Origin: Escherichia phage UPEC03
Reading direction: 5' to 3' (one strand)
Sequence record: MW250785
Length of the DNA: 64,000 nt
The stretch's first letter is position 1; each line of letters starts with the position of its first letter. The position numbers and the translations under genes are program-made. This document shows positions 14,605 to 56,576 of this stretch, piece by piece. Below the pieces are notes generated by a model, which was not told where the DNA came from, searched no databases, and saw only the letters and a list, made by a program, of their open reading frames with translations.

Positions 14605-14643
14605 AAAAAGCCCCTTGCATGAGTAAGGGGCTTTTGTTATATT
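14605..14643 (+). promoter_or_regulatory. PeSL-type terminator/early-promoter stem-loop (class A)
   Basis: Hairpin 14609-14632 with T-run. -35 TTGCAT (14615-14620) sits in the loop, then a 17-nt spacer and -10 TATATT (14638-14643). Downstream: leader CATCGAAACGAAAC, SD AGGA and ATG 14681. Confidence 0.75.
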
Positions 14644-14680
14644 ACAAACATCGAAACGAAACAGACAAAAGGAACATCCC

Positions 14681-14953
14681 ATGCAAATCACTAAAGAACT
14701 CGAAGGCAAAGTAATCGTTCTGGTAAATGAAGACCGTTTGGCACAACTGGGTAACGGTGGTGAAAAACTGCCAGCGGACGCACTCGAAAGCCTTTCTAAA
14801 ATGCGTGTGATGCGTGTTACTGACGGTTGGGTTACTTGTCTGCCTCTGAACGACGAAGACAAAGCCGTATACGATGCACAAGCGGATTCATGGGATATCG
14901 AAGTACCTCTGGTAAACATCGAAGTTGAAGAGTGCTACGAAATCGAAAAATAA
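14681..14953 (+). CDS. Hypothetical protein (90 aa)
   Basis: First ORF after the PeSL. Confidence 0.6.
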   Translation: MQITKELEGKVIVLVNEDRLAQLGNGGEKLPADALESLSKMRVMRVTDGWVTCLPLNDEDKAVYDAQADSWDIEVPLVNIEVEECYEIEK

Positions 14954-14956
14954 TGC

Positions 14957-14989
14957 TTGCTTACTGGGTAATGTAGTGGTACATTACCC
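14957..14989 (+). promoter_or_regulatory. Early promoter overlapped by a perfect 10-bp stem-loop (class B)
   Basis: TTGCTT (14957-14962), 17 nt spacer, TACATT (14980-14985). Stem GGGTAATGTA/TACATTACCC (14966-14975 / 14980-14989). Leader TATCGAAACGAAAGGAG. Confidence 0.6.
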
Positions 14990-15014
14990 ATATCGAAACG
15001 AAAGGAGAAACATC

Positions 15015-15194
15015 ATGAAAATTATGCACACTGCAAATCAACTTCAAAACGGCAACTACGCTATCCACGATGCTATCGGTGCGCTGGTTGGGGTTTATCT
15101 TCATGGTATCAAACTCCTTGAAGTAAGTGGGAATACCTTTTATGGTGTTGAAAACATCGAAGCAGCGATGGAAATTATCGGTGACCTGAAATGA
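15015..15194 (+). CDS. Hypothetical protein (59 aa)
   Basis: ATG 15015 preceded by AAAGGAG. The track start at 14925 runs through the promoter. Confidence 0.55.
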   Translation: MKIMHTANQLQNGNYAIHDAIGALVGVYLHGIKLLEVSGNTFYGVENIEAAMEIIGDLK

Positions 15195-15382
15195 GTAAGA
15201 AACTCGAAATATTCGAAACTATCAGCGAAGACCCTAATCATCGCTGGTGCTGTGCGAAAACTGGTTTTGATGCTGCATGGGGTGATACTCCAGAACAGGC
15301 GCGTAAAAACTGGGAACACCAACAATTGTTTTTTGCCTGTCGGGTTCCTACCAATTATGAGGGGAGTCAATTGTTAGCATGA
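15191..15382 (+). CDS. Hypothetical protein (63 aa)
   Basis: ATGA coupling. Confidence 0.5.
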   Translation: MSKKLEIFETISEDPNHRWCCAKTGFDAAWGDTPEQARKNWEHQQLFFACRVPTNYEGSQLLA

Positions 15383-15675
15383 AAAATAAAGAATATGACC
15401 CAATAGAAGTTAAAGAGCGGTTATCGGTAGCAAGAAGATTCCTTGAATCTATCGACCCTGATAAACTTGGAAAATGCCCTGATACGATTTGCCTTAATTG
15501 TGGGCGATCCGTAATGGTTGGAAAGTGCTGTGATAATCAGAATATCGTTATCATGGACAGGAAAGAAGTTTCACCGGAAGTATGGGATCGGATTCAAGAG
15601 ATCATCAAAAACCCACCTGAACCGACGAAACGTTTACGCGAACTTATGAGCAGGAAACCACGTTATGAAAAATGA
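15379..15675 (+). CDS. Hypothetical zinc-ribbon protein (98 aa)
   Basis: ATGA coupling. Cys cluster CPDTICLNCG...CC. Confidence 0.5.
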   Translation: MKNKEYDPIEVKERLSVARRFLESIDPDKLGKCPDTICLNCGRSVMVGKCCDNQNIVIMDRKEVSPEVWDRIQEIIKNPPEPTKRLRELMSRKPRYEK

Positions 15676-16039
15676 ACCAAGTAAAACTATCCGCCTGATC
15701 CGTTGGGAAGGGCAAGAAATCCGTTATGAAGACGACGACCGCGAATTCGTCCATGAAATGCTTGCGCATAATCTGGGATTCAAAAACGCCGCACTGGTGA
15801 TGATGCAACAAACCAGCGATGAAGACACCTGGCAATGCGTCATTCTCGATCTGGACAAAAACAAGGAATACACCGAAGATGAACTGTTTGCGCTCACAGA
15901 GAACGCTACAGCGCGTCAGAAGTGCTTCATGATCGATATGCCTCGCGAGAACTACGAGAATATCAAGAAAGCCCGTAAACAGAACAAGAACAACGTGTTC
16001 GACCTGTTCATGGGCTATCATGAAGAAACTACGGCCTAA
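15665..16039 (+). CDS. Acidic hypothetical protein (124 aa)
   Basis: Overlaps the upstream ORF by 11 nt. Its stop codon overlaps the stop of convergent gene 27. Confidence 0.5.
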   Translation: MKNEPSKTIRLIRWEGQEIRYEDDDREFVHEMLAHNLGFKNAALVMMQQTSDEDTWQCVILDLDKNKEYTEDELFALTENATARQKCFMIDMPRENYENIKKARKQNKNNVFDLFMGYHEETTA

Positions 16040-17139
16040 GCCTCACTTGTTTTGCTGGTGTCGTTAGTAGCCGCTGCCACCTGTACACATTCCAATGTTT
16101 GCAGGTGGAAATCTTTTGATACGTCGCGGACACATTCAACGATCAGATACTTCCCTGAATATTCATCCCCTAACACCTCAATCAATGCCCCCACTTTAAC
16201 ATCCATTCGACCCTGATTGATATCAAACCGAATACGTTTTTCATAGCTGGATAACGTCTGACACTTCACAGCCTGGAACGGTTGACCCTGTTTGTCTGGG
16301 TTCTGGAAGTTGTTCTCATATACCGCGTTTCTGTTCATGGTGATCCATGCGTTTTCAATATCGGTACTCGCAAGGATATCACTATACAGTTTTTTATCCG
16401 TCATCGAGAAACTAAAGAAACTTGCATCCCCTAACAGGGTAGTGTTATCCTTATGGGTAATGTATTCACCTTTCGTGAATACCAAAGCGTCACCTAAAAA
16501 CGGGTTACTTACGTTGAACTTGTAAGCCTTTAACGGGGTTTGTGCGAGGATCTCCGTATTGCTTTTCATAAAGATACCGGAACCATCTTCCCACAGATAA
16601 CAGAAGTCAGACGAATCTACGCTCTGCCCGTTGTCACGGATGTAATCAAACACGGTTTCATACGTCCCGCTCAGGCAAGCCGGAGGAATACGCACGTTTG
16701 ATGCGTCGATATGCGGCGTGATCAACTTCATATCGTTATACAGTGCCGTCATGCACTCTGTAATCGTCTGTACGGCGTTGTTACTGAACGAACGGGAAAA
16801 CTTACGACGAAACACCGTATGCACCGGAGAAAGGTTTAGGCGCAGTATAGAGCGGTTCATATCATCGGTTTCGACGTTTGAATACAGAACACCGTAGTAA
16901 TGCTGTTCTAACGTTTCGTTATACTGGAAGGATACCTGAATAATCGGTTTTTCTGTCAACTGATAGATTAACTGGTTATCATAGATCTGCATCAATGTTT
17001 CAGAAGTACCGTTAATGATGGTTTTCTCACTCATTGAGACAAGGGCAGGTAACAATTCAAGATAGACGTTATCAGCGAACTTTTCATATGTTGGATATAA
17101 TTTAACCGACACGACGCGGTTTATAACTTTACTGGACAT
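16036..17139 (-). CDS. 27: Baseplate hub subunit gp27
   Basis: 367 aa. N-terminal VSVKLYPTYEKFADNVYLEL..MQIYDNQ..IIQVS and C-terminal YLIVECVRDVS are collinear with T4 gp27 as recalled. Confidence 0.7.
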   Translation of the reverse strand: MSSKVINRVVSVKLYPTYEKFADNVYLELLPALVSMSEKTIINGTSETLMQIYDNQLIYQLTEKPIIQVSFQYNETLEQHYYGVLYSNVETDDMNRSILRLNLSPVHTVFRRKFSRSFSNNAVQTITECMTALYNDMKLITPHIDASNVRIPPACLSGTYETVFDYIRDNGQSVDSSDFCYLWEDGSGIFMKSNTEILAQTPLKAYKFNVSNPFLGDALVFTKGEYITHKDNTTLLGDASFFSFSMTDKKLYSDILASTDIENAWITMNRNAVYENNFQNPDKQGQPFQAVKCQTLSSYEKRIRFDINQGRMDVKVGALIEVLGDEYSGKYLIVECVRDVSKDFHLQTLECVQVAAATNDTSKTSEA

Positions 17140-17160
17140 TAGACATCCTCCCTTTATATT

Positions 17161-23210: not shown

Positions 23211-23212
23211 CA

Positions 23213-23234
23213 AAAAGCCCCTTTCGGGGCTTTT
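23213..23234. terminator. Bidirectional terminator between convergent late (+) and early (-) units
   Basis: AAAAGCCCC-TTTC-GGGGCTTTT, with A/T runs on both sides. Confidence 0.8.
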
Positions 23235-23235
23235 C

Positions 23236-23733
23236 TTATTCCATCACGATCCAGCCCATTAGCTGTTGATATCGCAATTCGAACGGGGTGATGAAAGAGC
23301 GGTTATTGATAACCTTCGTCCCGTTGTAGGACTTAATCACTTCTTCACCACGAAGTACATATTCGTATACTTCGTCCATAGTGTCGTAACGCACTTCTTC
23401 GACTTCGAAGCAGAAGTTGGAATATTCAATCATCCCGATCTTGTTCGCGTAACGACGTTCGATACAACCCTGTTTTTCAATCTGAGTAATCGCAGTATCA
23501 ATGAACTGCGCAAGTGCTTGCATGAAATTACCACATTCGACTTCACGGCCCCCGCTTGAGATAGCCAGGTAAACGCGGTTCAATCCATCATTACCGATGT
23601 AGCCGATGCAATCGCCACCGATATTAACAGCCCACACTTTACCCATTGGCCCCATACCCATTCTGTTCTCACTACGAGAAACACCTTTCAGTAACAGTGC
23701 CATGATACCGCCGCGAACGTAATTCATTTTCAT
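23236..23733 (-). CDS. Hypothetical protein (165 aa)
   Basis: SD AAGGGG upstream. Confidence 0.6.
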   Translation of the reverse strand: MKMNYVRGGIMALLLKGVSRSENRMGMGPMGKVWAVNIGGDCIGYIGNDGLNRVYLAISSGGREVECGNFMQALAQFIDTAITQIEKQGCIERRYANKIGMIEYSNFCFEVEEVRYDTMDEVYEYVLRGEEVIKSYNGTKVINNRSFITPFELRYQQLMGWIVME

Positions 23734-24186: not shown

Positions 24187-24224
24187 GTTCTCGTTCCTTT
24201 TGGCTGTTCCGTTTCGATATGTGT

Positions 24225-24263
24225 AATATAACAAAGCCCTCACCGAGAGGCAAGGGCTTTTTT
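24225..24263 (-). promoter_or_regulatory. PeSL-type terminator/early-promoter stem-loop (class A)
   Basis: - strand: hairpin 24260-24233, -35 TTGCCT (24253-24248), 17 nt spacer, -10 TATATT (24230-24225), leader ACACATATCGAAACGGAAC. Confidence 0.7.
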
Positions 24264-24266
24264 GAT

Positions 24267-29849: not shown

Positions 29850-29864
29850 AATAATTTCCTCACG

Positions 29865-30170: not shown

Positions 30171-30205
30171 GGTATGTTCCTTTTCAGTTTCGTTTCGGTA
30201 AAGCT

Positions 30206-30234
30206 AATGTATCACTATCCTGGTCAGTATGCAA
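30206..30234 (-). promoter_or_regulatory. Sigma70-type early promoter; -35 lies in the last codons of the HNH gene
   Basis: - strand TTGCAT (30234-30229), 17 nt spacer, TACATT (30211-30206), leader ACCGAAACGAAAC. Confidence 0.6.
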
Positions 30235-30760
30235 TGTTTAATTTTGCAAATTTACCAAAATGTTTTATCGCTTCCCGATCGTATGCTTTTGCAGCCTCGT
30301 ATTCGTCACGATAGGAACCGATATGTTTAACCTTGCCGTCAATCTTTATCTGTGCAATGTAACGTATTCCAGTAGGTTGATCACGTACACATACACCCTT
30401 GAATCGACTGGTTGCTACTCTTCGTTTAGTCCGGTTCTGACAGTTTCGGGATTGATCCGCTTCACGCAAGTTATCAATCCCGTCGCCAGCCTCAACACCA
30501 TTTTTATGATCAATCACATCAGGCAGTTTTCCGGTTGCAACGTAGTAGATGATTCGATGACGTAGATATCCTTTGCTTTTGAAATAAACGCGGGTATATC
30601 CTCCTTTAATCTTCGAACCTACTTCCTTTCCGATCAAGTCAGAACGTTTGTGTGACGTTCGTATAATTGTCCCCGTTTGTATATCAACAGAAACAGTTTT
30701 AAGGAATTCGTCAATTCCTTTCTGTTCTTCTTCGATTGTTCTTAGTCCGTTGTGTGACAT
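30224..30760 (-). CDS. Free-standing HNH homing endonuclease with AP2 domain (paralog 2 of 3)
   Basis: 178 aa. IDHKNGVEAGDGIDNLREADQSRNCQN and FKGVC..RYIAQIKIDGKVKHIGSYRDEYEAAKAYDREA. Overlaps the methyltransferase 3' end by 19 nt. Confidence 0.8.
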   Translation of the reverse strand: MSHNGLRTIEEEQKGIDEFLKTVSVDIQTGTIIRTSHKRSDLIGKEVGSKIKGGYTRVYFKSKGYLRHRIIYYVATGKLPDVIDHKNGVEAGDGIDNLREADQSRNCQNRTKRRVATSRFKGVCVRDQPTGIRYIAQIKIDGKVKHIGSYRDEYEAAKAYDREAIKHFGKFAKLNIAY

Positions 30761-31665
30761 AACACCTTCTTGATTTGTTTTGCTATAGCCTCGATTACTG
30801 GTATTGAAACAGAATTACCTGCTTGTTTATACGCTTGCATCTTGCTTTTGTTGATAATAAACGAATCTGGGAAACCCTGCAAACGAAAACACTCACGGGG
30901 AGTAAGTCTTCGGGGGTTCTTTCCTTCCTGCAATACCAGACATTGAACACCATCTTTATAGTAATTTGCAGTGATAGTCCCAGTGTGCGTAGAATCGCTT
31001 GTGACGGCCTGATAACCGAAACCCTTACCGTTTGCCTTATTTCGTTCCTTACGCTCTCTAAAGCCCTTCCATGCGTTATCTGACAGGGTGAACGAATCAT
31101 CAGCATCTTCGAGGATGTCGCCTACGCGTGTAGGGGTACGCGGGGGAACCGGAAACGAAAAGAATACATCATCCAGGAAGCAGACAATAAACACGCGTTC
31201 CCGTCTTTGGGGTAGTCCGAAATCCTTTGTGTTCAGGCGTTGATAGAATACGTTATATCCTTCGGCCTCCAGAAGCCCGTAAATCGTTTTAAACGTCTTC
31301 CCCTTGTCATGGGTTAGCAGTTCAGGCACGTTCTCAAAGAACAACACACGGGGCTTTTTAGCGCGTATAATGCGGAGGATTTCGAAGAACACCGTACCGC
31401 GTACATCATCAAAGCCCAGTTTCAATCCGGCTTTACTGAACGCCTGACACGGGAACCCCGCGAGCAGGATATCATGATCAGGTACTTTGTTTTCATCAAT
31501 GGCGAATAGATCACCCTGTAGGTTATCATCGCCCCAGTTTTCGATATATGTTTGCTGTGCGAACTTGTCGATTTCAGACGTTAAAAGGCATTCGACACCG
31601 CCGAACGCCTTATCAAATCCTAATCGAACCCCGCCCACACCAGCGCAGAGGTCAATTATTTTCAT
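30742..31665 (-). CDS. DNA (cytosine-5)-methyltransferase
   Basis: 307 aa. Motif I DLCAGVGG, IV GFPCQAFS, VI FFENV, VIII QRRERVFIV, X GNSVS. Confidence 0.9.
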   Translation of the reverse strand: MKIIDLCAGVGGVRLGFDKAFGGVECLLTSEIDKFAQQTYIENWGDDNLQGDLFAIDENKVPDHDILLAGFPCQAFSKAGLKLGFDDVRGTVFFEILRIIRAKKPRVLFFENVPELLTHDKGKTFKTIYGLLEAEGYNVFYQRLNTKDFGLPQRRERVFIVCFLDDVFFSFPVPPRTPTRVGDILEDADDSFTLSDNAWKGFRERKERNKANGKGFGYQAVTSDSTHTGTITANYYKDGVQCLVLQEGKNPRRLTPRECFRLQGFPDSFIINKSKMQAYKQAGNSVSIPVIEAIAKQIKKVLCHTTD

Positions 31666-31931
31666 ACGTCAAAATCAATCTCGTCGATTTTGTATGAGTT
31701 TTCGTCAATGTCCGCCCATAGGGTTACATTAACGTGTTTGCTATCTTCGTACAACTGGCGACCATCAATCCCGCCCGTGTAATTGCTTTCGGTACGTTCA
31801 GTAACTTCCAGTCGGAGGCTATCGCGCATGATCTGAACAACAGCCTGTTCCAGTGTAACTGCGTCTGGGTTTTTGGTATCGCCCAGTACAACATCTTTAA
31901 CGTTCAAAATAATATCAGTCATTAGTGCCAC
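31662..31931 (-). CDS. Hypothetical protein (89 aa)
   Basis: ATGA-coupled to the methyltransferase gene. Confidence 0.55.
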   Translation of the reverse strand: MALMTDIILNVKDVVLGDTKNPDAVTLEQAVVQIMRDSLRLEVTERTESNYTGGIDGRQLYEDSKHVNVTLWADIDENSYKIDEIDFDV

Positions 31932-32164: not shown

Positions 32165-33162
32165 TTGTAATACCCCACAACATGATCGCGGTATACGCGT
32201 TCGATGAAATCGTTCCAGAATTCGCGGTCAACTTCTTTCGGATATGTTGAAATCGCTGCAAGCCGTTCGACTTCGCCCATGACTTCTTCCAGCTTTTCCT
32301 GTACGGTTGCGAACGGTACGCCGCCAGCTTTAACCAGTTTCAGGAATGCGCTATCAGGCAGAGGATAAACGATATCACCATCTTTGTAAATCTGGATCAA
32401 CTGCATACCACCGCGCAACGCGTGACTTAAAGCCTTCCAGTCGATGCCGTTGTTGGCTTCTGCTTGTCGTGCGCGTTCTCCGTATTCATCCCAGAGTTTG
32501 TACACTGACTTACGCATTTCATCGGCTTTGATCGTGAACTGGAATTTACGCCCCAGCACTTCATAGAAGTCCTGACAACCAGATTTCATTGTCGTGTCGG
32601 TAACGAATCGGCAGAACTCGTTTGTAGGGAAACGATTCTTGATGTCAGACACTTTCACTTCACGCGTATAGCGTTTCATATCTGGTGTGAATTCCTGAAT
32701 ACCACCGATCGTTTCGGTTTCTTTCAGTACATCGACAACTTCGCGCAGTGCAGCCAGTCGGGAACCTTTCACACCATATTTTGCGGCTTGCTTGCGAACA
32801 TAACCGAACAGGCCAGTTAGTTCAGTGGTGTAAAAACGCCAGCGGTTAGCGCGGATATACTGCCAGATTTCAGAGTTAGCGATCAGCTTGTCATCCGAAG
32901 CGTGAAGCATATCGAGCGCTACGGTATCACCATCACACGCAAGGCTGATAAACTTAGTCAGACTATACAACTGACGATCAACGTCGTCTACGGTGTTTTT
33001 AGAGCTTTTATCGCCCGTGCTGGTGTCGATAGACTTCTTCGCAGTGCCTAACAGGATTTCGCGAGGATGAGGGAGATAGATCCCTTTGTAGTCTTTATCG
33101 CTTGTTGGTGTTTCCAGTCCGTAAAGATGGGATCCAAAAATCATTTCAGTAATCATTTTCAT
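32161..33162 (-). CDS. Pol-beta-superfamily nucleotidyltransferase (RlaP / PF10127-like)
   Basis: 333 aa from ATG 33162. N-terminal GSHLYGLETPTSDKDYKG matches the GS..YG...SD.D nucleotidyltransferase signature. Confidence 0.6.
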   Translation of the reverse strand: MKMITEMIFGSHLYGLETPTSDKDYKGIYLPHPREILLGTAKKSIDTSTGDKSSKNTVDDVDRQLYSLTKFISLACDGDTVALDMLHASDDKLIANSEIWQYIRANRWRFYTTELTGLFGYVRKQAAKYGVKGSRLAALREVVDVLKETETIGGIQEFTPDMKRYTREVKVSDIKNRFPTNEFCRFVTDTTMKSGCQDFYEVLGRKFQFTIKADEMRKSVYKLWDEYGERARQAEANNGIDWKALSHALRGGMQLIQIYKDGDIVYPLPDSAFLKLVKAGGVPFATVQEKLEEVMGEVERLAAISTYPKEVDREFWNDFIERVYRDHVVGYYK

Positions 33163-33920
33163 TATACAAATCTCCAATAAAACCCTTTATGAGTTTTTCT
33201 TTTACCGTTACAGCATGAACTTACATGCCCTTTGTTATACCCCATTTCAACGGCTTCCACAATACCACCATTTAAAATAGTTTCTCTTTCTGTTTTGATA
33301 CATTTCATAATCAAAGGTTTTATCAATTCCGTCTTCTTTTGTGAAATATTAGCTAATGCAATTACATTTCTGATATCAGATTCACTCATTAAATCAGAAA
33401 TCTTCTTTCTTAACCATACATAGCCTTGACTTTTGGCAAGTTTGCCGGAGCAACATTCATGAATATGACTAGGGTTAAATCCACGCAATTTCATTTCTTG
33501 CCGACCGCCTAATATGATAATCTCGTCTCCTGTTTCAAGGTTGAATCCGACAACTGGAATTATTTGCCGTTCCGACATTTTCTTTCTCGCTTCTTTCGTG
33601 AATATTGTAAGAGATTTTAATTTTCTCGCGTCGCTCATTTGCGAAGATGTCGTTTTGTATTTCTTAGTATTATGAGACATACGGAAAAAAGCATATCTCA
33701 TTTTATCACCAGCATACTTAGCAAGTAGATGATGAGCAAGATAATGCTCTTTATATGTTAAATATACTAAATTTTCGGGTTCATCAGTACCACCTAATGA
33801 CTTAGCAACGATATGGTGTATATCATAACCGCGCTTTCTATACTTTTTCGAGTAACCTTTAGGTATATCTCTTCTTTTTGCCAATGTAATTAGTTGGTCG
33901 TAAATACGCTTATAGTTCAT
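33162..33920 (-). CDS. Free-standing HNH homing endonuclease (Mob-like) with repeated C-terminal DNA-binding modules
   Basis: 252 aa from ATG 33920 (SD AGGAG). HHIVAKSLGGTDEPENLVYLTYKEHYLAHH. Two repeats of CC(S/N)GK..K.(Q/H)G(Y/F).W. Paralog of 61728-62396. Confidence 0.8.
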   Translation of the reverse strand: MNYKRIYDQLITLAKRRDIPKGYSKKYRKRGYDIHHIVAKSLGGTDEPENLVYLTYKEHYLAHHLLAKYAGDKMRYAFFRMSHNTKKYKTTSSQMSDARKLKSLTIFTKEARKKMSERQIIPVVGFNLETGDEIIILGGRQEMKLRGFNPSHIHECCSGKLAKSQGYVWLRKKISDLMSESDIRNVIALANISQKKTELIKPLIMKCIKTERETILNGGIVEAVEMGYNKGHVSSCCNGKRKTHKGFYWRFV

Positions 33921-34514: not shown

Positions 34515-34550
34515 TTTTCTTCCTTTTCATTATTCATGCGGTATGTGTAT

Positions 34551-34590
34551 ATAATACAAAAGCCCTCACGCGAACGCAAGGGCTTTTTTA
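34551..34590 (-). promoter_or_regulatory. PeSL-type terminator/early-promoter stem-loop (class A)
   Basis: - strand hairpin about 34587-34558, -35 TTGCGT (34579-34574), 17 nt spacer, -10 TATTAT (34556-34551). Confidence 0.65.
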
Positions 34591-34598
34591 ATCTTTTA

Positions 34599-35827: not shown

Positions 35828-36754
35828 TTATTTACGAGAATCGAAAATCACTTTACCAGCGTAATCAGAACCCATGACAGTTTGAGGTACACCGCCCTGA
35901 TATTTTTCCGCGATGGTCTGCTGAACATCAAGTTCTTTCCAGCGAATCATTTCTGGTGTAATGGTACGCTGCAACACGGCGTTCGCTTCGGCTTCTTTCT
36001 TAGCCGCATACAGACGGGCATCAGCATCACGCTCGTTAGCCTGTGCAGCATTGCTACGGGCTTCTTTATCGGCAATTGCCTGAACAACTGCCTGTTGAGC
36101 GATTTGCTCTTTACGTGCCAGTTCTGCTTTCTCTGCGTTCACCTGTTCTTCACGAATTTTCGTGTTTTCAACCTGCTTCTTGATCGCTTCCGGCAGGTCG
36201 ATATCCTGCAAGAATACCTGTTTCACGGTGTAACCGTAAGGGCGGGCATACTCTTCAACTTCCTGCTGGATCGCGATCTGTAGCTGGCTTTGAACTTCTG
36301 CATTATACAGATCCTGTGCTTTCGGTACAGATTTACCGAACTCACGGACAGTTGACAGAAGTTTTTCAGTCACATATTTATCCAGCGCCTGATCCTGACT
36401 ACCCGCATTGATACGGTTGATCGGGGCTTTGCTACCATCGAACTGTAACATCACGGTCATATCCACAGTGGATTTGAATTTATCCTGGGACGGAACCTGC
36501 AATTTGTCAAACTTCATTGCGATGTCTTTGGTGTTGAACACCTCGAAATCAGCCAGTGGATTTACCAGGTGGAAACCAGGCAGAACAGGCTTCGGTGAAA
36601 CTTTACCCATGAAGGTTTGAGTTTTTACCGTACCATCCTGAACGATAGTGTACGAGTTCGGAACCAGCCACAGAGCGGCGATTACGCCCAGAGCGATCAG
36701 TGTGGTTTTCTTCGGGTTGTTTACGATAGTGTTTAAGTTCATCATTATTTCCAT
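35828..36754 (-). CDS. SPFH / band-7 (prohibitin/HflC-like) membrane protein
   Basis: 308 aa. N-terminal TM helix, SPFH core and an Ala/Glu-rich coiled-coil tail. Start could be 36745 or 36742. Confidence 0.75.
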   Translation of the reverse strand: MEIMMNLNTIVNNPKKTTLIALGVIAALWLVPNSYTIVQDGTVKTQTFMGKVSPKPVLPGFHLVNPLADFEVFNTKDIAMKFDKLQVPSQDKFKSTVDMTVMLQFDGSKAPINRINAGSQDQALDKYVTEKLLSTVREFGKSVPKAQDLYNAEVQSQLQIAIQQEVEEYARPYGYTVKQVFLQDIDLPEAIKKQVENTKIREEQVNAEKAELARKEQIAQQAVVQAIADKEARSNAAQANERDADARLYAAKKEAEANAVLQRTITPEMIRWKELDVQQTIAEKYQGGVPQTVMGSDYAGKVIFDSRK

Positions 36755-36780
36755 TGGGTTTATGTTTCAATTCGATAGTT

Positions 36781-36808
36781 ATTCTATCATCACTTTTTCG
36801 CTTGTCAA
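36781..36808 (-). promoter_or_regulatory. Sigma70-type early promoter
   Basis: - strand TTGACA (36808-36803), 16 nt spacer, TAGAAT (36786-36781). Confidence 0.6.
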
Positions 36809-36815
36809 ACTCTTT

Positions 36816-37493: not shown

Positions 37494-37543
37494 AAGCAAT
37501 TCTCTACGTGCTTACGGATCAACAATAGATCCGTTCCTGTATA

Positions 37544-37551
37544 TATTTATA
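37544..37551 (-). promoter_or_regulatory. T4-type late promoter TATAAATA
   Basis: Exact TATAAATA on the - strand just after the terminator, 50 nt upstream of ATG 37493. A 7-bp hairpin ACGGATC/GATCCGT lies in the leader. Confidence 0.55.
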
Positions 37552-37553
37552 GC

Positions 37554-37576
37554 AAAAAAGGGGCGATTCGCCCCTT
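37554..37576 (-). terminator. Rho-independent terminator
   Basis: - strand AAGGGGCG-AAT-CGCCCCTT followed by TTTTTT. Confidence 0.75.
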
Positions 37577-37600
37577 ATGTAAAATTAGTCTAAAAATACA

Positions 37601-38023: not shown

Positions 38024-38608
38024 TTAACAGTTCAGACCAACATTATCAAGAAGTTTTTCGTGATAATGTTTGCGACAGAGCGAAACGTATTTGTCTTCGG
38101 CTCCGATCTCAACCTGCGCCCCTTCGGTTACGAAGTTGCCTTGTGCGTCGATACGTGCAACCGTAGTTGCTTTACGCCCACAGTGACACATTCCGCGCAG
38201 TTCTCGGATCTCGTCTGCCCAGGCCAGCAACCAGTAAGAACCCTCGAACAGATTCAACTGAAAATCAGTACGCAGACCGTAAGCCATTACAGGGATTTCG
38301 AGTTCATCAACAACGCGACATAGATCGAAAACGTTTTTCTTCGAAAGGAATTGCGCCTCGTCAACGAAGATGCAAGCAATTTTATTCCGGCGCTGAATGT
38401 CCCAGAACAGATCCATATCAGGCGCAATCAATTCACACTTTTCGTTCAGCCCGATACGCGAACTCACTGTGTTTGATGTGCGGGTGTCGATTGCTGGCTT
38501 ATAGATTACAACTCGCATACCGCGCTCTTTGTAATTGTGCGCGTCCGTCAATAGTCGCGCACTTTTGCCAGCGTTCATGGATGCATAGTGATAATACAAT
38601 TTAGCCAT
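38024..38608 (-). CDS. tk: Thymidine kinase
   Basis: 194 aa from ATG 38608. MAKLYYHYASMNAGKSARLL, VDEAQFL and CHCGRKAT..CRKHY resemble E. coli Tdk and T4 Tk. Confidence 0.92.
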   Translation of the reverse strand: MAKLYYHYASMNAGKSARLLTDAHNYKERGMRVVIYKPAIDTRTSNTVSSRIGLNEKCELIAPDMDLFWDIQRRNKIACIFVDEAQFLSKKNVFDLCRVVDELEIPVMAYGLRTDFQLNLFEGSYWLLAWADEIRELRGMCHCGRKATTVARIDAQGNFVTEGAQVEIGAEDKYVSLCRKHYHEKLLDNVGLNC

Positions 38609-38831: not shown

Positions 38832-39006
38832 TATGTCGCGCAAGATGCTCTTTGATTTCCGGTATCTGGATAGCAATATCATACTCTTCTTTCGTCATAG
38901 TATGATTTGCGCAACCCATACACCCGCACACCTGCGCGTTACACCAACGGAGTGTTCCGTATGTCGCAATCACCTTCATTGCTTTAGCTTTGATTTTGTC
39001 AGTCAT
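38791..39006 (-). CDS. Cys-rich hypothetical protein (71 aa)
   Basis: WCNAQVCGCMGCANH cluster. Confidence 0.5.
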   Translation of the reverse strand: MTDKIKAKAMKVIATYGTLRWCNAQVCGCMGCANHTMTKEEYDIAIQIPEIKEHLARHNEKLMGKGWFSIG

Positions 39007-39211
39007 GATTAGCTCGCTCCACCGCTACCGCATCACGAACAGCATCGGTGATTTCATTTTCAACGAAATCCAGGATATCCGCTGTAATATCGTCGATACA
39101 GGATTGATTGTAGTTACGTGAATCAGGATCATCATCTTCGGCATAATCCTGATACGCTTCGCCCAGTTGTTTCAGCTTGTGTTTTAACAGCTTTTGTTCT
39201 TGCGGTCTCAT
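38999..39211 (-). CDS. Acidic hypothetical protein (70 aa)
   Basis: ATGA-coupled to the macro-domain gene. Confidence 0.5.
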   Translation of the reverse strand: MRPQEQKLLKHKLKQLGEAYQDYAEDDDPDSRNYNQSCIDDITADILDFVENEITDAVRDAVAVERANHD

Positions 39212-41277: not shown

Positions 41278-41305
41278 AATTTAATCCTCAATAGTTGGTA
41301 CACAC

Positions 41306-41343
41306 ATAATAAAAAAGCCCCTGCGAAAATGCAAGGGCTTTTT
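41306..41343 (-). promoter_or_regulatory. PeSL-type terminator/early-promoter stem-loop (class A)
   Basis: - strand hairpin 41343-41312, -35 TTGCAT (41334-41329), 17 nt spacer, -10 TATTAT (41311-41306). Confidence 0.65.
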
Positions 41344-41344
41344 A

Positions 41345-44375: not shown

Positions 44376-44900
44376 TTATGTGGTTTCGTTAAAAAATGTG
44401 CCGAAAACCTCTTTCGCTTTCCGGTCATAAACGGCTTTTGCTTCTTCTGGAGTGGTATAATACCCCAAAAATTTTCTTTTTCCATCTATGTTTATCTGCG
44501 CTTTATACTTCCCATTTGCTTTGTGATAAGAAACACCTTTCAACCCCGTACTGCTGTTTGAATTACATTTCTTTTTCATCGCGTTTTGTTGGTTCGTCGC
44601 TTTCTGTAGATTTCTTGCTGTATCTCCATTTTCAACACCATACACATGATCTACGATAGGAGGAAGATAACCATTCTCAACGTAAAACACTATTCGGTGT
44701 CGCAAATACATAGAACCTTTAAAATGAATTTGGGAATACTCGTTCTTGCTTCCGGCTTCACTTCCAGGAGACATAGGGCCGCGCTGAATTTTCCAATACA
44801 CTTTTCCCGTAGATGTATCAACATCTACATAACTCAGAAGAGACTCAATCCCTTGAATCTCTTCCTGTATGGTTCTTGATGAATAACCATGACTTTTCAT
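44376..44900 (-). CDS. Free-standing HNH homing endonuclease with AP2 domain (paralog 3 of 3)
   Basis: 174 aa from ATG 44900 (TAATG coupling). VDHVYGVENGDTARNLQKATNQQN and LKGVSYHKANGKYKAQINIDGKRKFLGYYTTPEEAKAVYDRKA. Confidence 0.8.
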   Translation of the reverse strand: MKSHGYSSRTIQEEIQGIESLLSYVDVDTSTGKVYWKIQRGPMSPGSEAGSKNEYSQIHFKGSMYLRHRIVFYVENGYLPPIVDHVYGVENGDTARNLQKATNQQNAMKKKCNSNSSTGLKGVSYHKANGKYKAQINIDGKRKFLGYYTTPEEAKAVYDRKAKEVFGTFFNETT

Positions 44901-46918: not shown

Positions 46919-46959
46919 TTCAATCCCCTTGTTTATCTGTTTCGTTGTCTACGAGAGAG

Positions 46960-46987
46960 ATATTATCACAACGGGGATTAGTGTCAA
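46960..46987 (-). promoter_or_regulatory. Sigma70-type early promoter
   Basis: - strand TTGACA (46987-46982), 16 nt spacer, TAATAT (46965-46960), leader ...GACAACGAAACAG. ATCCCC (46979-46974) can pair with the SD GGGGAT (46928-46923). Confidence 0.65.
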
Positions 46988-46990
46988 CAG

Positions 46991-47257: not shown

Positions 47258-47686
47258 TTATACTCTTTTAAGGTTAGTTTTGCTGGCTTCGATCCAGCTT
47301 ACTTGGTTAGATCCAATATCACCCAGACATACAGTTGTATGACTAAATGTGTTCGGTAAAGAAACACCATCAGGAGATAACAACAAATCATGTACACTTA
47401 CGCTGGTTGCATACAAATAACCACCGGACGTATACAGTGTTTTTATGAAATCATATGAATCGTTGGGCCACTTGAAACGGTATTTCTGGTTCCAGAGTTC
47501 AACTTCATGCACATCATATTCATCGAACAGGGGATCGTTGCCCTTTGTCGCTTCGTAAAGCGCACCGCGCCATTCAACTAAATCCGCTTCGATATCACTT
47601 ACACAAAACTCTTCTTTTGCGCTCAGTTTATCAAGCATCATTTCAATAGTGCGGATAGCCATGCTTAATTCACGATCGAGTTTCAT
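47258..47686 (-). CDS. Hypothetical protein (142 aa)
   Basis: ATG 47686 is ATGA-coupled. The track start is an upstream non-ATG extension. Confidence 0.55.
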   Translation of the reverse strand: MKLDRELSMAIRTIEMMLDKLSAKEEFCVSDIEADLVEWRGALYEATKGNDPLFDEYDVHEVELWNQKYRFKWPNDSYDFIKTLYTSGGYLYATSVSVHDLLLSPDGVSLPNTFSHTTVCLGDIGSNQVSWIEASKTNLKRV

Positions 47687-50313: not shown

Positions 50314-50337
50314 AACAATCTCCGGTTTCGTTTCTAT

Positions 50338-50372
50338 GTGTGTAAGGTATCATTACCCTACACACAACGCAA
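50338..50372 (-). promoter_or_regulatory. Early promoter overlapped by a 12-bp stem-loop (class B)
   Basis: - strand TTGCGT (50372-50367), 17 nt spacer, TACCTT (50349-50344). The stem 50365-50354 / 50349-50338 has one pair that is G-U only on the - strand RNA. Leader ATAGAAACGAAACC. Confidence 0.55.
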
Positions 50373-50379
50373 GCGATTT

Positions 50380-50971: not shown

Positions 50972-50998
50972 GATATCCTCCTTCGTTTCGATGTGTGT

Positions 50999-51037
50999 AA
51001 TATAACAAAACCCCTCACCATAGACAAGGGGTTTCTT
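50999..51037 (-). promoter_or_regulatory. PeSL-type terminator/early-promoter stem-loop (class A)
   Basis: - strand hairpin 51034-51008, -35 TTGTCT (51027-51022), 17 nt spacer, -10 TATATT (51004-50999), leader ACACACATCGAAACGAAGGAGG. Confidence 0.7.
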
Positions 51038-51053
51038 TAACAAAAAGTGCTAT

Positions 51054-52424: not shown

Positions 52425-52460
52425 GATGTTTTCCTTTCTCTGTTTCGTTTCGATGTGTGT

Positions 52461-52499
52461 AATATAACAAAGCCCCTGCATTGCTGCAAGGGCTTTTTT
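52461..52499 (-). promoter_or_regulatory. PeSL-type terminator/early-promoter stem-loop (class A)
   Basis: - strand hairpin 52496-52469, -35 TTGCAG (52489-52484), 17 nt spacer, -10 TATATT (52466-52461), leader ACACACATCGAAACGAAAC. Confidence 0.7.
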
Positions 52500-52503
52500 C
52501 ACT

Positions 52504-53664: not shown

Positions 53665-53671
53665 AATATAA

Positions 53672-53932: not shown

Positions 53933-54315
53933 TTAGGCAATGCCCCGAAAGACAGCAGCCCCATACGATGATCGTTATCTGATTCACCAGTGCTGAATTC
54001 AAATTCTTCACCGCTGATACTGATAGCGCGGAAACCGTCTTTCAGGTATGGCAACAGATACAGAGGGATCAGCATCATGTTTGAATCGTCGCTCCACTTA
54101 CGGAAGCCCAGATTTTTCATTTCTTCCAGCGTCAAATCATTCGGATCGACGGGTTCGAAATCAGGGGAAGCGTAAAGGCGTCCAGGCAGATCGCGAATAT
54201 TTTTCACGGTGAATGAATCACCCCAGGACTGATACACGGTAGGTTCAGCGGCGCGGGTTGCGGTAGCCAGGAGGATCATTTGACAGATTTGAAAAGTTGT
54301 TGCTTTTGGTTTCAT
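53929..54315 (-). CDS. Hypothetical protein (128 aa)
   Basis: ATGA-coupled to the Nudix gene. Confidence 0.55.
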   Translation of the reverse strand: MKPKATTFQICQMILLATATRAAEPTVYQSWGDSFTVKNIRDLPGRLYASPDFEPVDPNDLTLEEMKNLGFRKWSDDSNMMLIPLYLLPYLKDGFRAISISGEEFEFSTGESDNDHRMGLLSFGALPK

Positions 54316-54725
54316 GATGTATATCCCACAAGTTTAGTCAGTAAATTCCCCATAGTCTTACGCGCATGATCGCGGATCTGGCTATACGGAACATATTTGA
54401 AGTCATCCATTTCAGTAATGGTTCGACCATTTTTAACGAAGGTTGAAGCACAAACACATTTTTCTGCTTCGGGGTAATTATTACCCACATATACGAATAA
54501 CACAAGCTCTTTTTTACTCGTATAATCAATCAGACCCAGGCTCAACAGTTCGTGTTGTTCAACTACAACGCCCGTTTCCTCGAAGCATTCACGGATAGCA
54601 GCATTGATCGGGGATTCGCCTTTTTCGATATGCCCCTTTGGGATGTCCCAATGAGGCGTTTCGGTTGCGTGGCCCATTAAAACGCTGCCGTTATTCAGGA
54701 AGAGAATACCAGCAGACCGTTCCAT
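54312..54725 (-). CDS. Nudix hydrolase
   Basis: 137 aa. Nudix box GHIEKGESPINAAIRECFEETGV. Confidence 0.85.
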   Translation of the reverse strand: MERSAGILFLNNGSVLMGHATETPHWDIPKGHIEKGESPINAAIRECFEETGVVVEQHELLSLGLIDYTSKKELVLFVYVGNNYPEAEKCVCASTFVKNGRTITEMDDFKYVPYSQIRDHARKTMGNLLTKLVGYTS

Positions 54726-54970
54726 TACTGTGCTCCGAACTTACGATCGTATGCTGCCAGCGCTTTATCTGCTGCATCAACTGCCTGAGTGTGTTTGTTA
54801 GCGGATTTCTCGCTGAACACTTCGCGGTAAATGGCAACCCAGAGGGATCGGCGGGTCTGTTCGCTTTCTTCATTGACGCGAGAAGCCGCAAAAGCGTTAT
54901 GTTCTTTGATCAGTTGTGCGAATTCAGCATCATGATCAATGGTTTGTTGTTGAATAGCTGTAGAAGTCAT
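54725..54970 (-). CDS. Hypothetical protein (81 aa)
   Basis: TAATG/ATGA coupling on both sides. Confidence 0.55.
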   Translation of the reverse strand: MTSTAIQQQTIDHDAEFAQLIKEHNAFAASRVNEESEQTRRSLWVAIYREVFSEKSANKHTQAVDAADKALAAYDRKFGAQ

Positions 54971-55245
54971 AATTCACCTATTTCTTTCAGTTCAGTTTTG
55001 AGTTTTTCGAGAGTCGATTGGTACTGAATGCCGTTTTCTGGATTTGGCAGACGGGCATAATACAGCGTACCAGTTTTGTTGATGTCTGACAACACCTCTT
55101 GATCGAGGGTAGCCGGATCGATGCCAAAAGCCATTTTAAACATGGTTTCCGCGTCTGGGGCGAATCCGTGAGAGAATGCAAACCCCAGCTTTTTATCAAA
55201 CTGCATCAGGGATACTTTGTTACCCATTGATATCTTATTCCCCAT
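54967..55245 (-). CDS. Hypothetical protein (92 aa)
   Basis: ATG 55245 (or 55227) instead of the track's upstream start. Confidence 0.5.
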   Translation of the reverse strand: MGNKISMGNKVSLMQFDKKLGFAFSHGFAPDAETMFKMAFGIDPATLDQEVLSDINKTGTLYYARLPNPENGIQYQSTLEKLKTELKEIGEL

Positions 55246-55531
55246 AATGTTCTTCGTAATCCTCGCATTCTGGGAGATAGGTTTCGCAGAACATACACAG
55301 CGTGAAGAATGTAGGCTGGCGAATTCCGATATTATCGGGTAAGTACATCCAGAACGTGTTAGCAAACACGATGAACGTTTTCAGGTTTTCAACGGTTACG
55401 GTACTGACACCATCATAACCGGATTGAGCAATTGCGCGTTCCAGGGGAACAGGGTATTGCTCGCAGTAATCGACGTAATGATCGCTTGTTACAAGCGCAT
55501 TAGCCGCTTTTACGAGATCGGTAATTTTCAT
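55235..55531 (-). CDS. Hypothetical protein (98 aa)
   Basis: ATGA coupling upstream. Confidence 0.55.
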   Translation of the reverse strand: MKITDLVKAANALVTSDHYVDYCEQYPVPLERAIAQSGYDGVSTVTVENLKTFIVFANTFWMYLPDNIGIRQPTFFTLCMFCETYLPECEDYEEHYGE

Positions 55532-55794
55532 TCAATATATCCCCAACGAATTTTTACGTTATCTTCTGACGCCGGACTTGTAGGAGTTGGGTATGGATAA
55601 CTTTGCGCTTCCCACAGATAAACAATGGCGTGTTTTGTCAATTCTTCGATAACTTCATCGAAAGTACCGACACTGGTTTGTAAAGGCAACGAGAAAGGTT
55701 TATCGTTGGTTTCTACTTGAGCGATTGGCCCATCTACCAAGATAACACGAACCGTTGTGTGCTCAGACATATGAGCATAGATTTTGTTTTTCAT
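55528..55794 (-). CDS. Hypothetical protein (88 aa)
   Basis: ATGA coupling upstream. Confidence 0.55.
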   Translation of the reverse strand: MKNKIYAHMSEHTTVRVILVDGPIAQVETNDKPFSLPLQTSVGTFDEVIEELTKHAIVYLWEAQSYPYPTPTSPASEDNVKIRWGYIE

Positions 55795-56129
55795 GCGGGT
55801 ACATATTCCACTTTGACAGGTTTTGCAATAAGGCGTTCTTTGGTGAAGCCTTGCCCGTTACAGATATCACAAGTAACGTTGAAGTCTTCCATCTGATCAA
55901 CCCAGCCAGAATCCGGTAAGCCAGAAGGATACGTGTTAACACGCACAACTTCGAACCCTTTACCATCGCATTTCGGGCATTTGTGCGGGTACTGGGATTT
56001 AACCATACTCAGCAGTTGCCCCAGCGTTGTTGAACGATCGAAGCGTTCGACCAGTGCCATTACATCAGCAATACGAATCGAACCAGCATCAATAACGGTA
56101 TACAGGTTTTTCGGTACATTTGAGCGCAT
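55791..56129 (-). CDS. DnaJ-type zinc-finger protein (112 aa)
   Basis: ATG 56129. Two CxxCxGxG repeats (CPKCDGKG, CDICNGQG). Confidence 0.55.
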   Translation of the reverse strand: MRSNVPKNLYTVIDAGSIRIADVMALVERFDRSTTLGQLLSMVKSQYPHKCPKCDGKGFEVVRVNTYPSGLPDSGWVDQMEDFNVTCDICNGQGFTKERLIAKPVKVEYVPA

Positions 56130-56139
56130 AGTATATTTC

Positions 56140-56280
56140 TCACTTAAAAATTTTTTTGATGAAAGAGAGGAACAATCCACCACCGAACATGATCCAGTAT
56201 CCCGCGCCGTCACCGTTAAACAGGACATACACAGCGACACCATAGCAAAAGATTTCCGCGATATTCAGTAAGTTTCTCAT
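56140..56280 (-). CDS. Small membrane protein (46 aa; below track cutoff)
   Basis: MRNLLNIAEIFCYGVAVYVLFNGDGAGYWIMFGGGLFLSFIKKIFK. Strong SD GGAGGGAG upstream. Confidence 0.55.
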   Translation of the reverse strand: MRNLLNIAEIFCYGVAVYVLFNGDGAGYWIMFGGGLFLSFIKKIFK

Positions 56281-56306
56281 AACTCCCTCCTTTGTCTACA
56301 CCAGGT

Positions 56307-56334
56307 ATTTTACCAGAAAGTAGATTACTGTCAA
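56307..56334 (-). promoter_or_regulatory. Sigma70-type early promoter
   Basis: - strand TTGACA (56334-56329), 16 nt spacer, TAAAAT (56312-56307). Confidence 0.65.
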
Positions 56335-56369
56335 CAACAAAGTTTTATCAACCCACTTATCACCAGTCA

Positions 56370-56510
56370 TTAGTAATCCCCTACAGGTTGAGAAGATGCA
56401 ACGCTCAGTATACGGAAAGAGCATTCATTCCATTTGCAATAAGTTTTCGCACAGTGAACAGTGCCTTTCATTACAAACCCGTTTGAGAACACCAGCCAGT
56501 AAAGTTTCAT
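56370..56510 (-). CDS. Hypothetical protein (46 aa)
   Basis: ATG 56510 preceded by AAAGGAGGCAATC. The longer track ORF reads through the PeSL. Confidence 0.45.
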   Translation of the reverse strand: MKLYWLVFSNGFVMKGTVHCAKTYCKWNECSFRILSVASSQPVGDY

Positions 56511-56537
56511 GATTGCCTCCTTTGTTTCGACACCCCT

Positions 56538-56576
56538 AATATAACAAAAGCCCCTGCACGAATGCAAGGGCTTTTT
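56538..56576 (-). promoter_or_regulatory. PeSL-type terminator/early-promoter stem-loop (class A)
   Basis: - strand hairpin 56574-56547, -35 TTGCAT (56567-56562), 18 nt spacer, -10 TATATT (56543-56538), leader ..GTCGAAACAAAGGAGG. Confidence 0.65.

Follow-up and report, generated by a model that had tools for sequence, protein, structure and literature searches.

Do the repeated hairpin-promoter units scattered among the small early genes of a T4-like phage only punctuate transcription, or do they also supply the homology by which such genes are lost and exchanged? The question arises from a 64,000-nucleotide (nt) stretch of Escherichia phage UPEC03 (sequence record MW250785), called the window below, which is part of a T4-like myovirus of the genus Pseudotevenvirus (RB43/RB16/GAP161 group). 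An earlier inspection of the letters alone, here the sequence-only reading, had reported ten such units, seven of class A and three of class B, and had likened them to the promoter-early stem-loop (PeSL) cassettes of RB49-type phages. All ten were found where it placed them and on the strands it gave. All are intergenic, and all class A copies but one lie among the early genes of the minus strand at 23.2-59.3 kb. Class A comprises near-identical units of ~80 bases in which a stop hairpin appears to be fused with an early start signal. We consider it probable (roughly 0.8) that the units are terminator/early-promoter cassettes of the PeSL kind, which act as crossover homology for gene loss and gene swaps.

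The class A copies are as follows, with hairpin energies and z scores against shuffles in brackets and the lengths of the downstream genes in amino acids (aa).

A1, 14590-14680, plus strand: comes after the DNA ligase (gene 30) stop codon and precedes a 90-aa gene; mini-hairpin TAGCACTTTTTGCTA, putative terminator hairpin AAAAAGCCCCTTGCATGAGTAAGGGGCTTTT (-21.1 kcal/mol, z -4.83; the highest-ranked terminator-like site in the scan), -35 TTGCAT, 17-nt spacer, -10 TATATT, leader ACAAACATCGAAACGAAACAGACAAAAGGAAC.
A2, 24187-24266, minus strand: hairpin AAAAAAGCCCTTGCCTCTCGGTGAGGGCTTT (-19.2 kcal/mol, z -5.42), -35 TTGCCT, 17-nt spacer, -10 TATATT, shared leader, 71-aa gene.
A3, 34515-34598, minus strand: hairpin AAAAAAGCCCTTGCGTTCGCGTGAGGGCTTTT (-18.9 kcal/mol, z -4.74), -35 TTGCGT, 17-nt spacer, -10 TATTAT, a different leader (no CGAAACGAA), 64-aa gene; this copy is identical in seven genomes.
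A4, 41278-41344, minus strand: downstream of vs.1; hairpin AAAAAGCCCTTGCATTTTCGCAGGGGCTTTTTT (-21.2 kcal/mol, z -5.95), -35 TTGCAT, 17-nt spacer, -10 TATTAT, different leader, 134-aa gene.
A5, 50972-51053, minus strand: mini-hairpin TAGCACTTTTTGTTA, hairpin AAAGAAACCCCTTGTCTATGGTGAGGGGTTTT (-13.7 kcal/mol, z -2.75), -35 TTGTCT, 17-nt spacer, -10 TATATT, leader ACACACATCGAAACGAAGGAGG, then an 83-aa gene.
A6, 52425-52503, minus strand: hairpin AAAAAAGCCCTTGCAGCAATGCAGGGGCTTT (-21.4 kcal/mol, z -4.95), -35 TTGCAG, 17-nt spacer, -10 TATATT, shared leader, 67-aa gene.
A7, 56511-56578, minus strand: hairpin AAAAAAGCCCTTGCATTCGTGCAGGGGCTTTT (-20.3 kcal/mol, z -5.47), -35 TTGCAT, 18-nt spacer, -10 TATATT, leader AGGGGTGTCGAAACAAAGGAGG, 46-aa gene.

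The sequence-only reading had proposed a profile search, and a nhmmer profile built from these seven copies recovered exactly the same seven as full-length matches (E 6e-13 to 5e-21). The next matches were all partial (B3, the leader of B2 and the bidirectional terminators at 23212-23240 and 60351-60383), indicating that the class A list is complete for the window. A degenerate pattern of hairpin plus -10 gave 5 matches in the window against 0 expected from 100 shuffles. Over 81 aligned columns the mean column identity of class A is 69%. The -10 forms and spacer lengths agree with the first description: five copies have TATATT and two TATTAT, and only A7, with 18 nt, departs from a 17-nt spacer. 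All seven have 27-38 nt between -10 and ATG, and in most copies the -10 is preceded by TG, usually as TGT (extended -10). A run of 4-6 A (AAAGAAA in A5) starts 0-17 nt past the upstream stop codon in every copy.

Other parts of the first description required correction. The -35 had been placed in the hairpin loop or 3' arm, whereas TTG(C/T)NN actually occupies the 5' arm and loop; the form proposed for it, TTG(C/T)NT, fits six copies but not A6 (TTGCAG). The leader thought to be conserved throughout, ACACAYATCGAAACGRA, is common to A1, A2, A5 and A6 and occurs as a diverged version in A7, but it is absent from A3 and A4. The genes downstream of the copies are indeed 46-134 aa long, but they are not strict ORFans: each of the ten belongs to a PHROG family of unknown function, and their GAP161 counterparts are annotated as similar to RB16/RB43 proteins. 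The report of a spurious shared peptide in the open reading frame (ORF) track was borne out. CYITHIETK (twice) and CYIRGVETK (once) arise at A5, A6 and A7 where TTGTTATATTACACACATCGAAACGAAA, upstream of the true start, is read in the frame of the gene itself.

The folding energies of the ten hairpins range from -13.7 to -21.4 kcal/mol, with z scores of -2.75 to -5.95 against shuffles. The class A stems, which overlap the -35 and the spacer, have 12-13 bp, loops of 3-6 nt and a tail of T3-4 G TTATATT. With the U-rich tract UUUUGUUAUAUU that follows the stem, class A is in anatomy a putative intrinsic terminator for transcripts arriving from upstream genes. A single consensus structure for covariation was dropped; MAFFT anchors the alignment on TTG, and because the 3' arms fall in two registers, per-sequence folds and a comparison of sense with antisense RNA were used instead. 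The window and 17 relative loci gave 74 class A instances, which represent 31 distinct hairpins. In all 31 the sense RNA folds more stably than the antisense RNA, with means of -18.1 and -14.2 kcal/mol, respectively. G.U pairs number 0-4 in the sense folds, 26 of the 31 having at least one, and 0-1 in the antisense folds. The greater stability of the sense fold follows from these pairs, since the opposite strand would have an A.C mismatch at each. Among copies, the pair directly over TTGC varies between G-C, A-T and C-G.

Two copies are more alike than the rest. A1 and A5 are separated by 36 kb and are on opposite strands. Both have an additional 15-20 nt at their upstream side (TAAATAGCACTTTTTG) that occurs nowhere else in the window, and comparison of their sequences suggests ectopic conversion between A1 and A5. 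We also observed a 5-bp mini-hairpin, TAGCACTTTTTG(C/T)TA, right after the stop codon at these two copies only (14591-14605 and 51038-51052). An operator of the form TAGCAN5TGYTA was considered and rejected on the grounds that it occurs at A1 and A5 only; being present just there, the mini-hairpin is read as extended A1/A5 homology. Separately, the A1 hairpin core of a relative represented by an uncultivated virus genome (UViG) resembles the A5-type core of other genomes.

Whether the units take part in gene exchange was examined against relatives taken from the GenBank phage collection, since a search of IMG/VR with an anchor protein gave only four related loci. Window alignments were chained against ten relatives, and gene families and elements were mapped at 49.5-57.5 kb in twelve genomes. 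Such a synteny comparison had been proposed as a check by the sequence-only reading, which an absence of breakpoints at the elements would have refuted. It instead found breakpoints and chimeric alleles inside elements of relatives (at A5, A6, hairpin-less relatives of the unit and the B2 site).

The first case is A5. GAP161, RB16, Fraggle and others have, in order, A5, a 92-aa frd.1-like gene, a hairpin-less promoter and the 83-aa gene, and both promoters flanking the frd.1-like gene share TGTTAT(A/T)(T/G)TACACACATCGAAACGAA. In the window A5 is joined directly to the 83-aa gene and has TATATT of the first copy and GGAGGATATC of the second. This hybrid of -10 and downstream sequence places the crossover within 20 identical bases (TACACACATCGAAACGAA) between the -10 and the Shine-Dalgarno (SD) sequence. 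The A5 of the window is thus, as its sequence reads, a recombinant joint from loss of the frd.1-like cassette. A cassette of ~360 bp splits the A5-site match in the best-matching records listed, including 5 of the 8 with at least 80% coverage.

A second deletion is found in Banach and leB, which lack the four or five genes that separate A6 from the next copy. Their hybrid element consists of the A6 upstream flank and the hairpin core of the other copy, a junction that places the crossover in AAAAAGCCC, within the hairpin 5' arm. Excision between neighbouring units would leave deletions like those of the window and of Banach/leB as its genomic products. The element upstream of the frd.1-like gene 27 combines one hairpin core with all four combinations of two flanks and two leaders (in CYPEBC003, BHU20, leB and Banach), a four-gamete pattern that requires recombination within ~60 nt. 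Maroon and Taquito have an extra gene 29 cassette between copies that share the -10 and leader. Banach has a 223-bp cassette (BANACH_203, a 71-aa gene) between leader fragments at 30171-30223; a gene replacement at 30219-30764 likewise has its left edge there. In RB43 the -10 and leader of the B2 site are joined to a class A-type hairpin. The crossover points differ by event (the hairpin 5' arm, the stretch from -10 to SD, GAAAC of the leader) and always lie within identity.

At 49.5-57.5 kb, 7 of 11 gene-content differences adjoin element-bearing junctions, which make up ~6 of the 27 junctions (binomial P = 0.004). Several results weigh against a general role in shuffling. Those seven differences are grouped near A5 and A6 and do not count as independent events; since the A5 and A6 events fall in one hot spot, a regional effect is inseparable from an element effect. 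Window-wide, 3 of 7 class A junctions were hit as against 18 of 78 others (one-sided Fisher P = 0.23, not significant), and A1, A3, A4 and A7 had no rearrangement in the genomes sampled. Most nearby indels are at ordinary gene junctions or involve homing-endonuclease genes, and six small single-gene indels coincide with ATGA start/stop overlaps, where the microhomology amounts to 4-25 bp. A 662-bp gene adjoining the A2 5' edge sits between the upstream stop codon and the A-tract with no flanking repeat. On the side of function, the -35 hexamers of class A match TTGACA at 3 of 6 positions only, a generic promoter scan did not report A1 as a promoter, and no U-tract of the kind expected of an intrinsic terminator follows any class B stem. 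Moreover, we infer promoter and terminator activity from the sequence and from the RB49 experiments of Arbiol 2010 (PMC2839356), and the point at which transcription starts and the pathway of recombination are likewise inferred. The claim that the cassettes are shuffling sites thus stands for the joints inside some elements; it does not extend to most nearby indels, which lie elsewhere, or to an enrichment, which is not significant. Here the PeSL model is supported by the recombinant-joint signature rather than by overall enrichment.

The remaining indels can be described in some detail. The ATGA-junction indels are at 31920-31926, 38601-38608, 38987-39011, 39208-39211, 47683-47686 and 55531/55788, and such events give the region a second and more frequent means of gaining and losing genes. 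Homing-endonuclease-like genes, unrelated to the cassettes, explain several of the largest indels. Genes present or absent among close relatives were observed at 30224-30760, 33162-33920, 44376-44824 and 61728-62396; three of the four are annotated as homing endonucleases in Banach or GAP161, and 61728-62396 is assigned from its indel behaviour only. One intragenic deletion not attributable to the elements was also seen, and B3 with the 66-aa gene upstream forms a 272-bp indel with no flanking repeat.

The 662-bp gene beside A2 is absent in 15 of 48 records. The top of the A2 hairpin (24233-24248) reads GCCTCTCGGT in the window and GCGTTCGCGT in every relative examined, the difference being a compensatory G-C to C-G swap in the top pair plus a new loop; the loop variant had no exact string match in IMG/VR. 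From the differing loop of Nando, an indel breakpoint inside the hairpin was considered. It was rejected, as HMGUkp1 and Margaery lack the gene and have the Nando-type loop. The indel therefore only abuts the hairpin edge, and the window loop is a separate variant.

Class A is one design among several in a catalogue of all intergenic gaps in the window. The class B units and the other start and stop signals are listed next.

B1, 6814-6873, plus strand: -35 TTGACA, 17-nt spacer, -10 TAAGAT, 88-aa gene; a stem of 8-10 bp, GTGCGGGT(GT)/(AT)ACCCGCAC, spans the spacer, -10 and +1 region with no U-tract (-18.9 kcal/mol, z -5.81); promoter-like in the scan (10/12, TG before the -10).
B2, 14954-15014, plus strand: -35 TTGCTT, -10 TACATT, leader ATATCGAAACGAAAGGAG, 59-aa gene; a stem of 10-11 bp, GGGTAATGTA/TACATTACCC, lies over the -10 (-15.6 kcal/mol, z -3.56).
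B3, 50314-50379, minus strand: -35 TTGCGT, -10 TACCTT, leader ATAGAAACGAAACCGGAG, 86-aa gene; a stem of 12-13 bp lies over the spacer and -10 (-19.7 kcal/mol, z -4.45).
30171-30223, minus strand: hairpin-less relative ('half PeSL') with extended -10 TGATACATT, leader ACCGAAACGAAACTGAAAAGGAAC and a 92-aa gene.
46919-46990, minus strand: hairpin-less promoter with -35 TTGACA, 16-nt spacer, -10 TAATAT after TG and the related leader GACAACGAAACAGATAAAC.
36746-36815, minus strand: hairpin-less promoter with -35 TTGACA, 16-nt spacer, -10 TAGAAT and the loosely related leader ATCGAATTGAAAC.
37494-37600, minus strand: another terminator plus promoter, with terminator AAGGGGCGAATCGCCCCTTTTTT and extended -10 TGCTATAAAT directly after it; the logic is that of class A and the sequence is unrelated.

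The class B stems had been described as perfect stems of 8-12 bp across the spacer and -10. Their position is as described, but B3 contains one G.T pair. Comparison of B3 with the Taquito copy gave one clear compensatory stem change and a second, probable one. Lacking a U-tract after the stem, class B units are not called terminators. The occurrence of the leader on hairpin-less promoters, together with the A3 and A4 hairpins that precede unrelated leaders, indicates that the hairpin and the -10/leader are separable modules. Plain terminators at 29850, 42983, 46618, 57762, 23212 and 60351 have the form GCCCC-tetraloop-GGGGC with no TTGC and no following -10. Those at 23212-23240 and 60351-60383 are bidirectional terminators between convergent genes and have the AAAGCCCC...GGGGCTTTT design of class A, again with no TTGC. 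Only hairpins with a following -10 have TTGC atop the stem, which argues that TTGC is built in as the -35.

These features suggest how a class A unit could operate. In read-through RNA from upstream genes, A(4-6)-GCCC(C)TTGC-loop-GCAGGGGC-U(3-4) would fold into a hairpin of 12-13 bp, and hairpin plus U-rich tract would end the upstream unit as an intrinsic terminator. In DNA, host sigma-70 RNA polymerase would read TTG(C/T)NN of the 5' arm as the -35 and TAT(A/T)(A/T)T 17-18 bp on as the -10, with the A-tract at the position of an UP element. Transcription would restart ~7 nt beyond the -10 (at the A of ACACACATCG, for instance) to give a hairpin-free mRNA with a short A/C-rich leader (AUCGAAACGAAACAG...) at its 5' end, followed by the SD and AUG. 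Each cassette would thereby insulate one block of small early genes from the next, with two functions packed into ~40 bp. Since both modules exist in several near-identical copies, crossover between copies could proceed by the general homologous recombination of the phage. The expected outcomes would be deletion between direct copies, insertion or exchange of a promoter-gene cassette, and homogenisation of the copies by gene conversion. Class B units would be early promoters of the same toolkit whose stem over the spacer/-10 forms only in read-through RNA, where it may serve in attenuation, processing or 3' protection.

How widely the family occurs was assessed with the 79-nt A6 unit as blastn query, which matched 186 phage records at 1143 places in all. 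Most records among the matches listed have ~5-9 copies per genome, and by organism name the matches are Pseudotevenvirus- and Slopekvirus-type phages plus one Pantoea and one Cronobacter phage. No T4 or RB49 record is among the matches listed. The A6 unit (hairpin plus leader) of KP15 is 94.6% identical, whereas in the best matches to a 25-kb stretch of the window 136 of 180 records are in the 60-90% identity bands. RB16 has copies at the junctions of A1, A2, A5, A6 and A7, and RB43 at those of A1 and A2. The hairpin core and upstream flank of A7 are identical in 12 genomes, and the RB16 variant is near-identical.

Parts of these units had been noticed before. Terminators are annotated in these regions in the Maroon, Margaery, KP15, CfP1 and Miller records, and in Maroon, Margaery and KP15 an annotated terminator (a TransTerm-type prediction) lies at or under the element match. 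In RB43, Nolan 2006 (PMC1524935) predicts an early promoter at 57694-57744 (Pe:57694) and a terminator at 57704-57725 after gene 30, which together are the ortholog of A1; a nested promoter 67312-67362 (Pe:67362) and terminator 67332-67352, the ortholog of A2; and the early promoter Pe:58043, the ortholog of B2. These predictions (Additional files 3 and 6) are thus the same elements at orthologous sites. Promoters and terminators are given there in separate tables, and the portion of that paper available does not discuss their nesting, a repeat family or a role in recombination. A literature search pairing PeSL with the names RB43, KP15, GAP161, Slopekvirus or Pseudotevenvirus returned Arbiol 2010 only, and the PeSL papers (Arbiol 2010, PMC2839356; Comeau 2014, PMC4122927) name RB43 only for 'PeSL-like sequences' near gene 43. 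The units are read as a lineage-specific PeSL family, found here only in the RB43/KP15 branch and not catalogued in this phage group before, of which parts were predicted separately in 2006.

Could the same observations be explained without cassettes of this kind? The units might be ordinary regulatory punctuation, in which independently kept terminators and promoters are alike by mechanism and have no special role in shuffling. This would fit the lack of a significant window-wide breakpoint enrichment at class A, the predominance of homing-endonuclease genes and ATGA junctions among the indels, and the static state of 4 of the 7 class A sites in the genomes sampled. It would also fit the AAAGCCCC...GGGGCTTT design shared by all terminators of the phage, promoter-less ones included. 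However, identity among copies also covers positions with no known consensus need (the 20-nt leader, the A1/A5 TAAATAGCACTTTTTG flank), the unrelated leaders of A3 and A4 indicate that the leader is not dictated by the promoter, and recombinant joints within the repeat and the four-gamete pattern were observed directly. We consider plain punctuation unlikely, and rather less likely again that the units work mainly by control at the RNA level, with hairpins that are 3' stabilisers, RNase sites or attenuators and a leader that is the operator for a phage regulator or nuclease. Strand-specific pairing with sense G.U pairs speaks for such control, as do class B stems conserved without a U-tract and with at least one compensatory change, and an A6 unit ~95% identical in KP15-type phages in which the 25-kb stretch is mostly 60-90% identical. 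Against this, class A has the full anatomy of an intrinsic terminator (12-13 bp GC stem, U-rich tail), the transcript from the cassette's own promoter would lack the hairpin, and there was no Rfam match and no regulator identified. Control by RNA would in any case be compatible with the PeSL explanation, not exclusive of it.

Mobility is a different matter. The sequence-only reading had called the cassettes mobile, yet the copies sit at conserved orthologous junctions of the genomes compared, RB16 and RB43 included, and have no transposon hallmarks. An autonomous or site-specific element, either like a miniature inverted-repeat transposable element (MITE) or integron-like with a phage enzyme that recognises the hairpin or leader, would account for single-gene cassettes flanked by copies (gene 29, the frd.1-like gene 27, BANACH_203), and several homing-endonuclease genes lie in the same region. 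According to Comeau 2014 (PMC4122927), Arbiol 2010 left open whether recombination was 'homologous or site-specific'. Unlike a MITE or other transposable repeat, the units keep to the same orthologous junctions across the Pseudotevenvirus genomes compared, and all seven window copies point in the direction in which the adjacent genes are transcribed. Neither target-site duplications at the edges nor terminal inverted repeats beyond the terminator stem were seen. Crossover points that vary and always fall inside identity are what homology-driven exchange predicts, and with the fixed orthologous positions and uniform orientation they argue against a transpositional or site-specific mechanism. 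We regard a mobile element as highly improbable. Hardly more probable is the proposal that the hairpin and 20-nt leader form the recognition site of a phage enzyme for integron-like cassette capture and excision in a lytic T4-like phage.

Integrons offer an analogy only. As with attC cassettes, single small genes are bounded by a repeated hairpin site and form presence/absence arrays. In contrast to integrons, the phage units appear to involve no integrase and no fixed crossover point, and exchange would be by homology. Integron cassettes are mostly promoterless, whereas each unit here would have its own promoter and terminator.

The closest parallel is with the PeSLs themselves, which are defined in five subtypes by stem position (Arbiol 2010, PMC2839356; Comeau 2014, PMC4122927). 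The identification proposed by the sequence-only reading stands, in that every sequence-level feature of the published definition is found in the units: a promoter with ~17-nt spacing, a stem-loop, an AT-rich tract, SD and ATG, conservation over ~100 bp and an intergenic position. Class A corresponds to the subtype with the stem over the -35 and class B to that with the stem over the -10. Like the PeSLs of RB49/phi1 (PMC2839356), the units have an AT tract, a sigma-70-like promoter with a stem-loop at it, SD, ATG and ~100 bp of conservation. They likewise lie between genes of hyperplastic regions, before small genes of unknown function, and are associated with indels between close relatives that leave chimeric units with crossovers from -10 to SD or in the stem-loop. 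The likeness to RB49-type phages needs a qualification. The phage is RB43-type (Pseudotevenvirus) and RB49 belongs to the genus Krischvirus, and the element matches listed include neither T4 nor RB49. The RB49 units have a near-perfect TTGACA-N17-TATAAT and a stem G(n)-loop-C(n), whereas those described here have TTGCNN-N17-TATATT and a stem A5-GCCC...GGGC-T4. In RB49, promoter activity, terminator activity and mini-circles were shown by experiment (Arbiol 2010, PMC2839356); the units here are known from their sequences.

Other PeSL sets agree in plan and differ in sequence. The consensus of the nt-1 PeSLs, TTGYVH-N17-TAWWAT (Comeau 2014, PMC4122927), fits 6 of the 7 class A -35 hexamers, and the nt-1 stem, A3-4 G3-loop-C3 T3-4, shares with the present units the flanking A- and T-tracts. 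The nt-1/KVP40 and PST/T4 PeSLs also include 'half' or degraded units and relatives with no hairpin near indels, as at 30171-30223 here. Their sequences are unrelated and their hosts different, and in the present units the C-run precedes the G-run. Unlike the PeSL set of Comeau 2014 (PMC4122927), no Mot-box (PmSL) variants were seen in the window; according to Nolan 2006 (PMC1524935), RB43-type phages lack MotA.

The window has a G+C content of 44%. On the plus strand early genes run up to DNA ligase (gene 30, 13066-14589) and are followed by five small genes; baseplate genes lie at 16-23 kb, and 23.2-59.3 kb on the minus strand is a long series of early genes, mostly small and unnamed. The 14-24 kb part is 98.9% identical to Enterobacter phage Nando, whereas 23-48 kb is 96-97% identical to the Cronobacter phages Banach and GAP161 and ~83% identical to RB43 and RB16. 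Among the matches listed, none covers >97% of 23-48 kb or has the same arrangement. Two tRNA genes, tRNA-Met(cat) at 8532-8608 and tRNA-Gly(tcc) at 8614-8689, are followed by ~150 nt of strongly structured, unannotated spacer before the next gene (8532-8838 region). Rfam at gathering thresholds returned the two tRNAs only and no family matching the elements. The divergent intergenic region beside gp3, 59295-59614, contains nested inverted repeats. The outer arms at 59318-59347 and 59456-59498 are GCGAAGCGA-rich and enclose an AT-rich palindrome at 59373-59421, and RNAfold gives -86.8 kcal/mol for the region, which is possibly a divergent promoter or origin-like region.

The idea that PeSLs provide both insulation and portable homology rests on three phage pairs. 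With ~186 genomes of the RB43/KP15 group that contain one compact family, the contribution of PeSLs to accessory-gene turnover becomes measurable. The window contributes a deletion not present in the best-matching database records listed, with its joint in a 20-nt repeat, and a four-gamete pattern within ~60 nt, and it allows element-mediated events to be separated from the more numerous homing-endonuclease and ATGA events. The units also mark true gene starts, as three ORF calls in the window are extended by the CYITHIETK artefact. Finally, they would define early transcription units in phages under development for therapy against Klebsiella, Enterobacter and Cronobacter.

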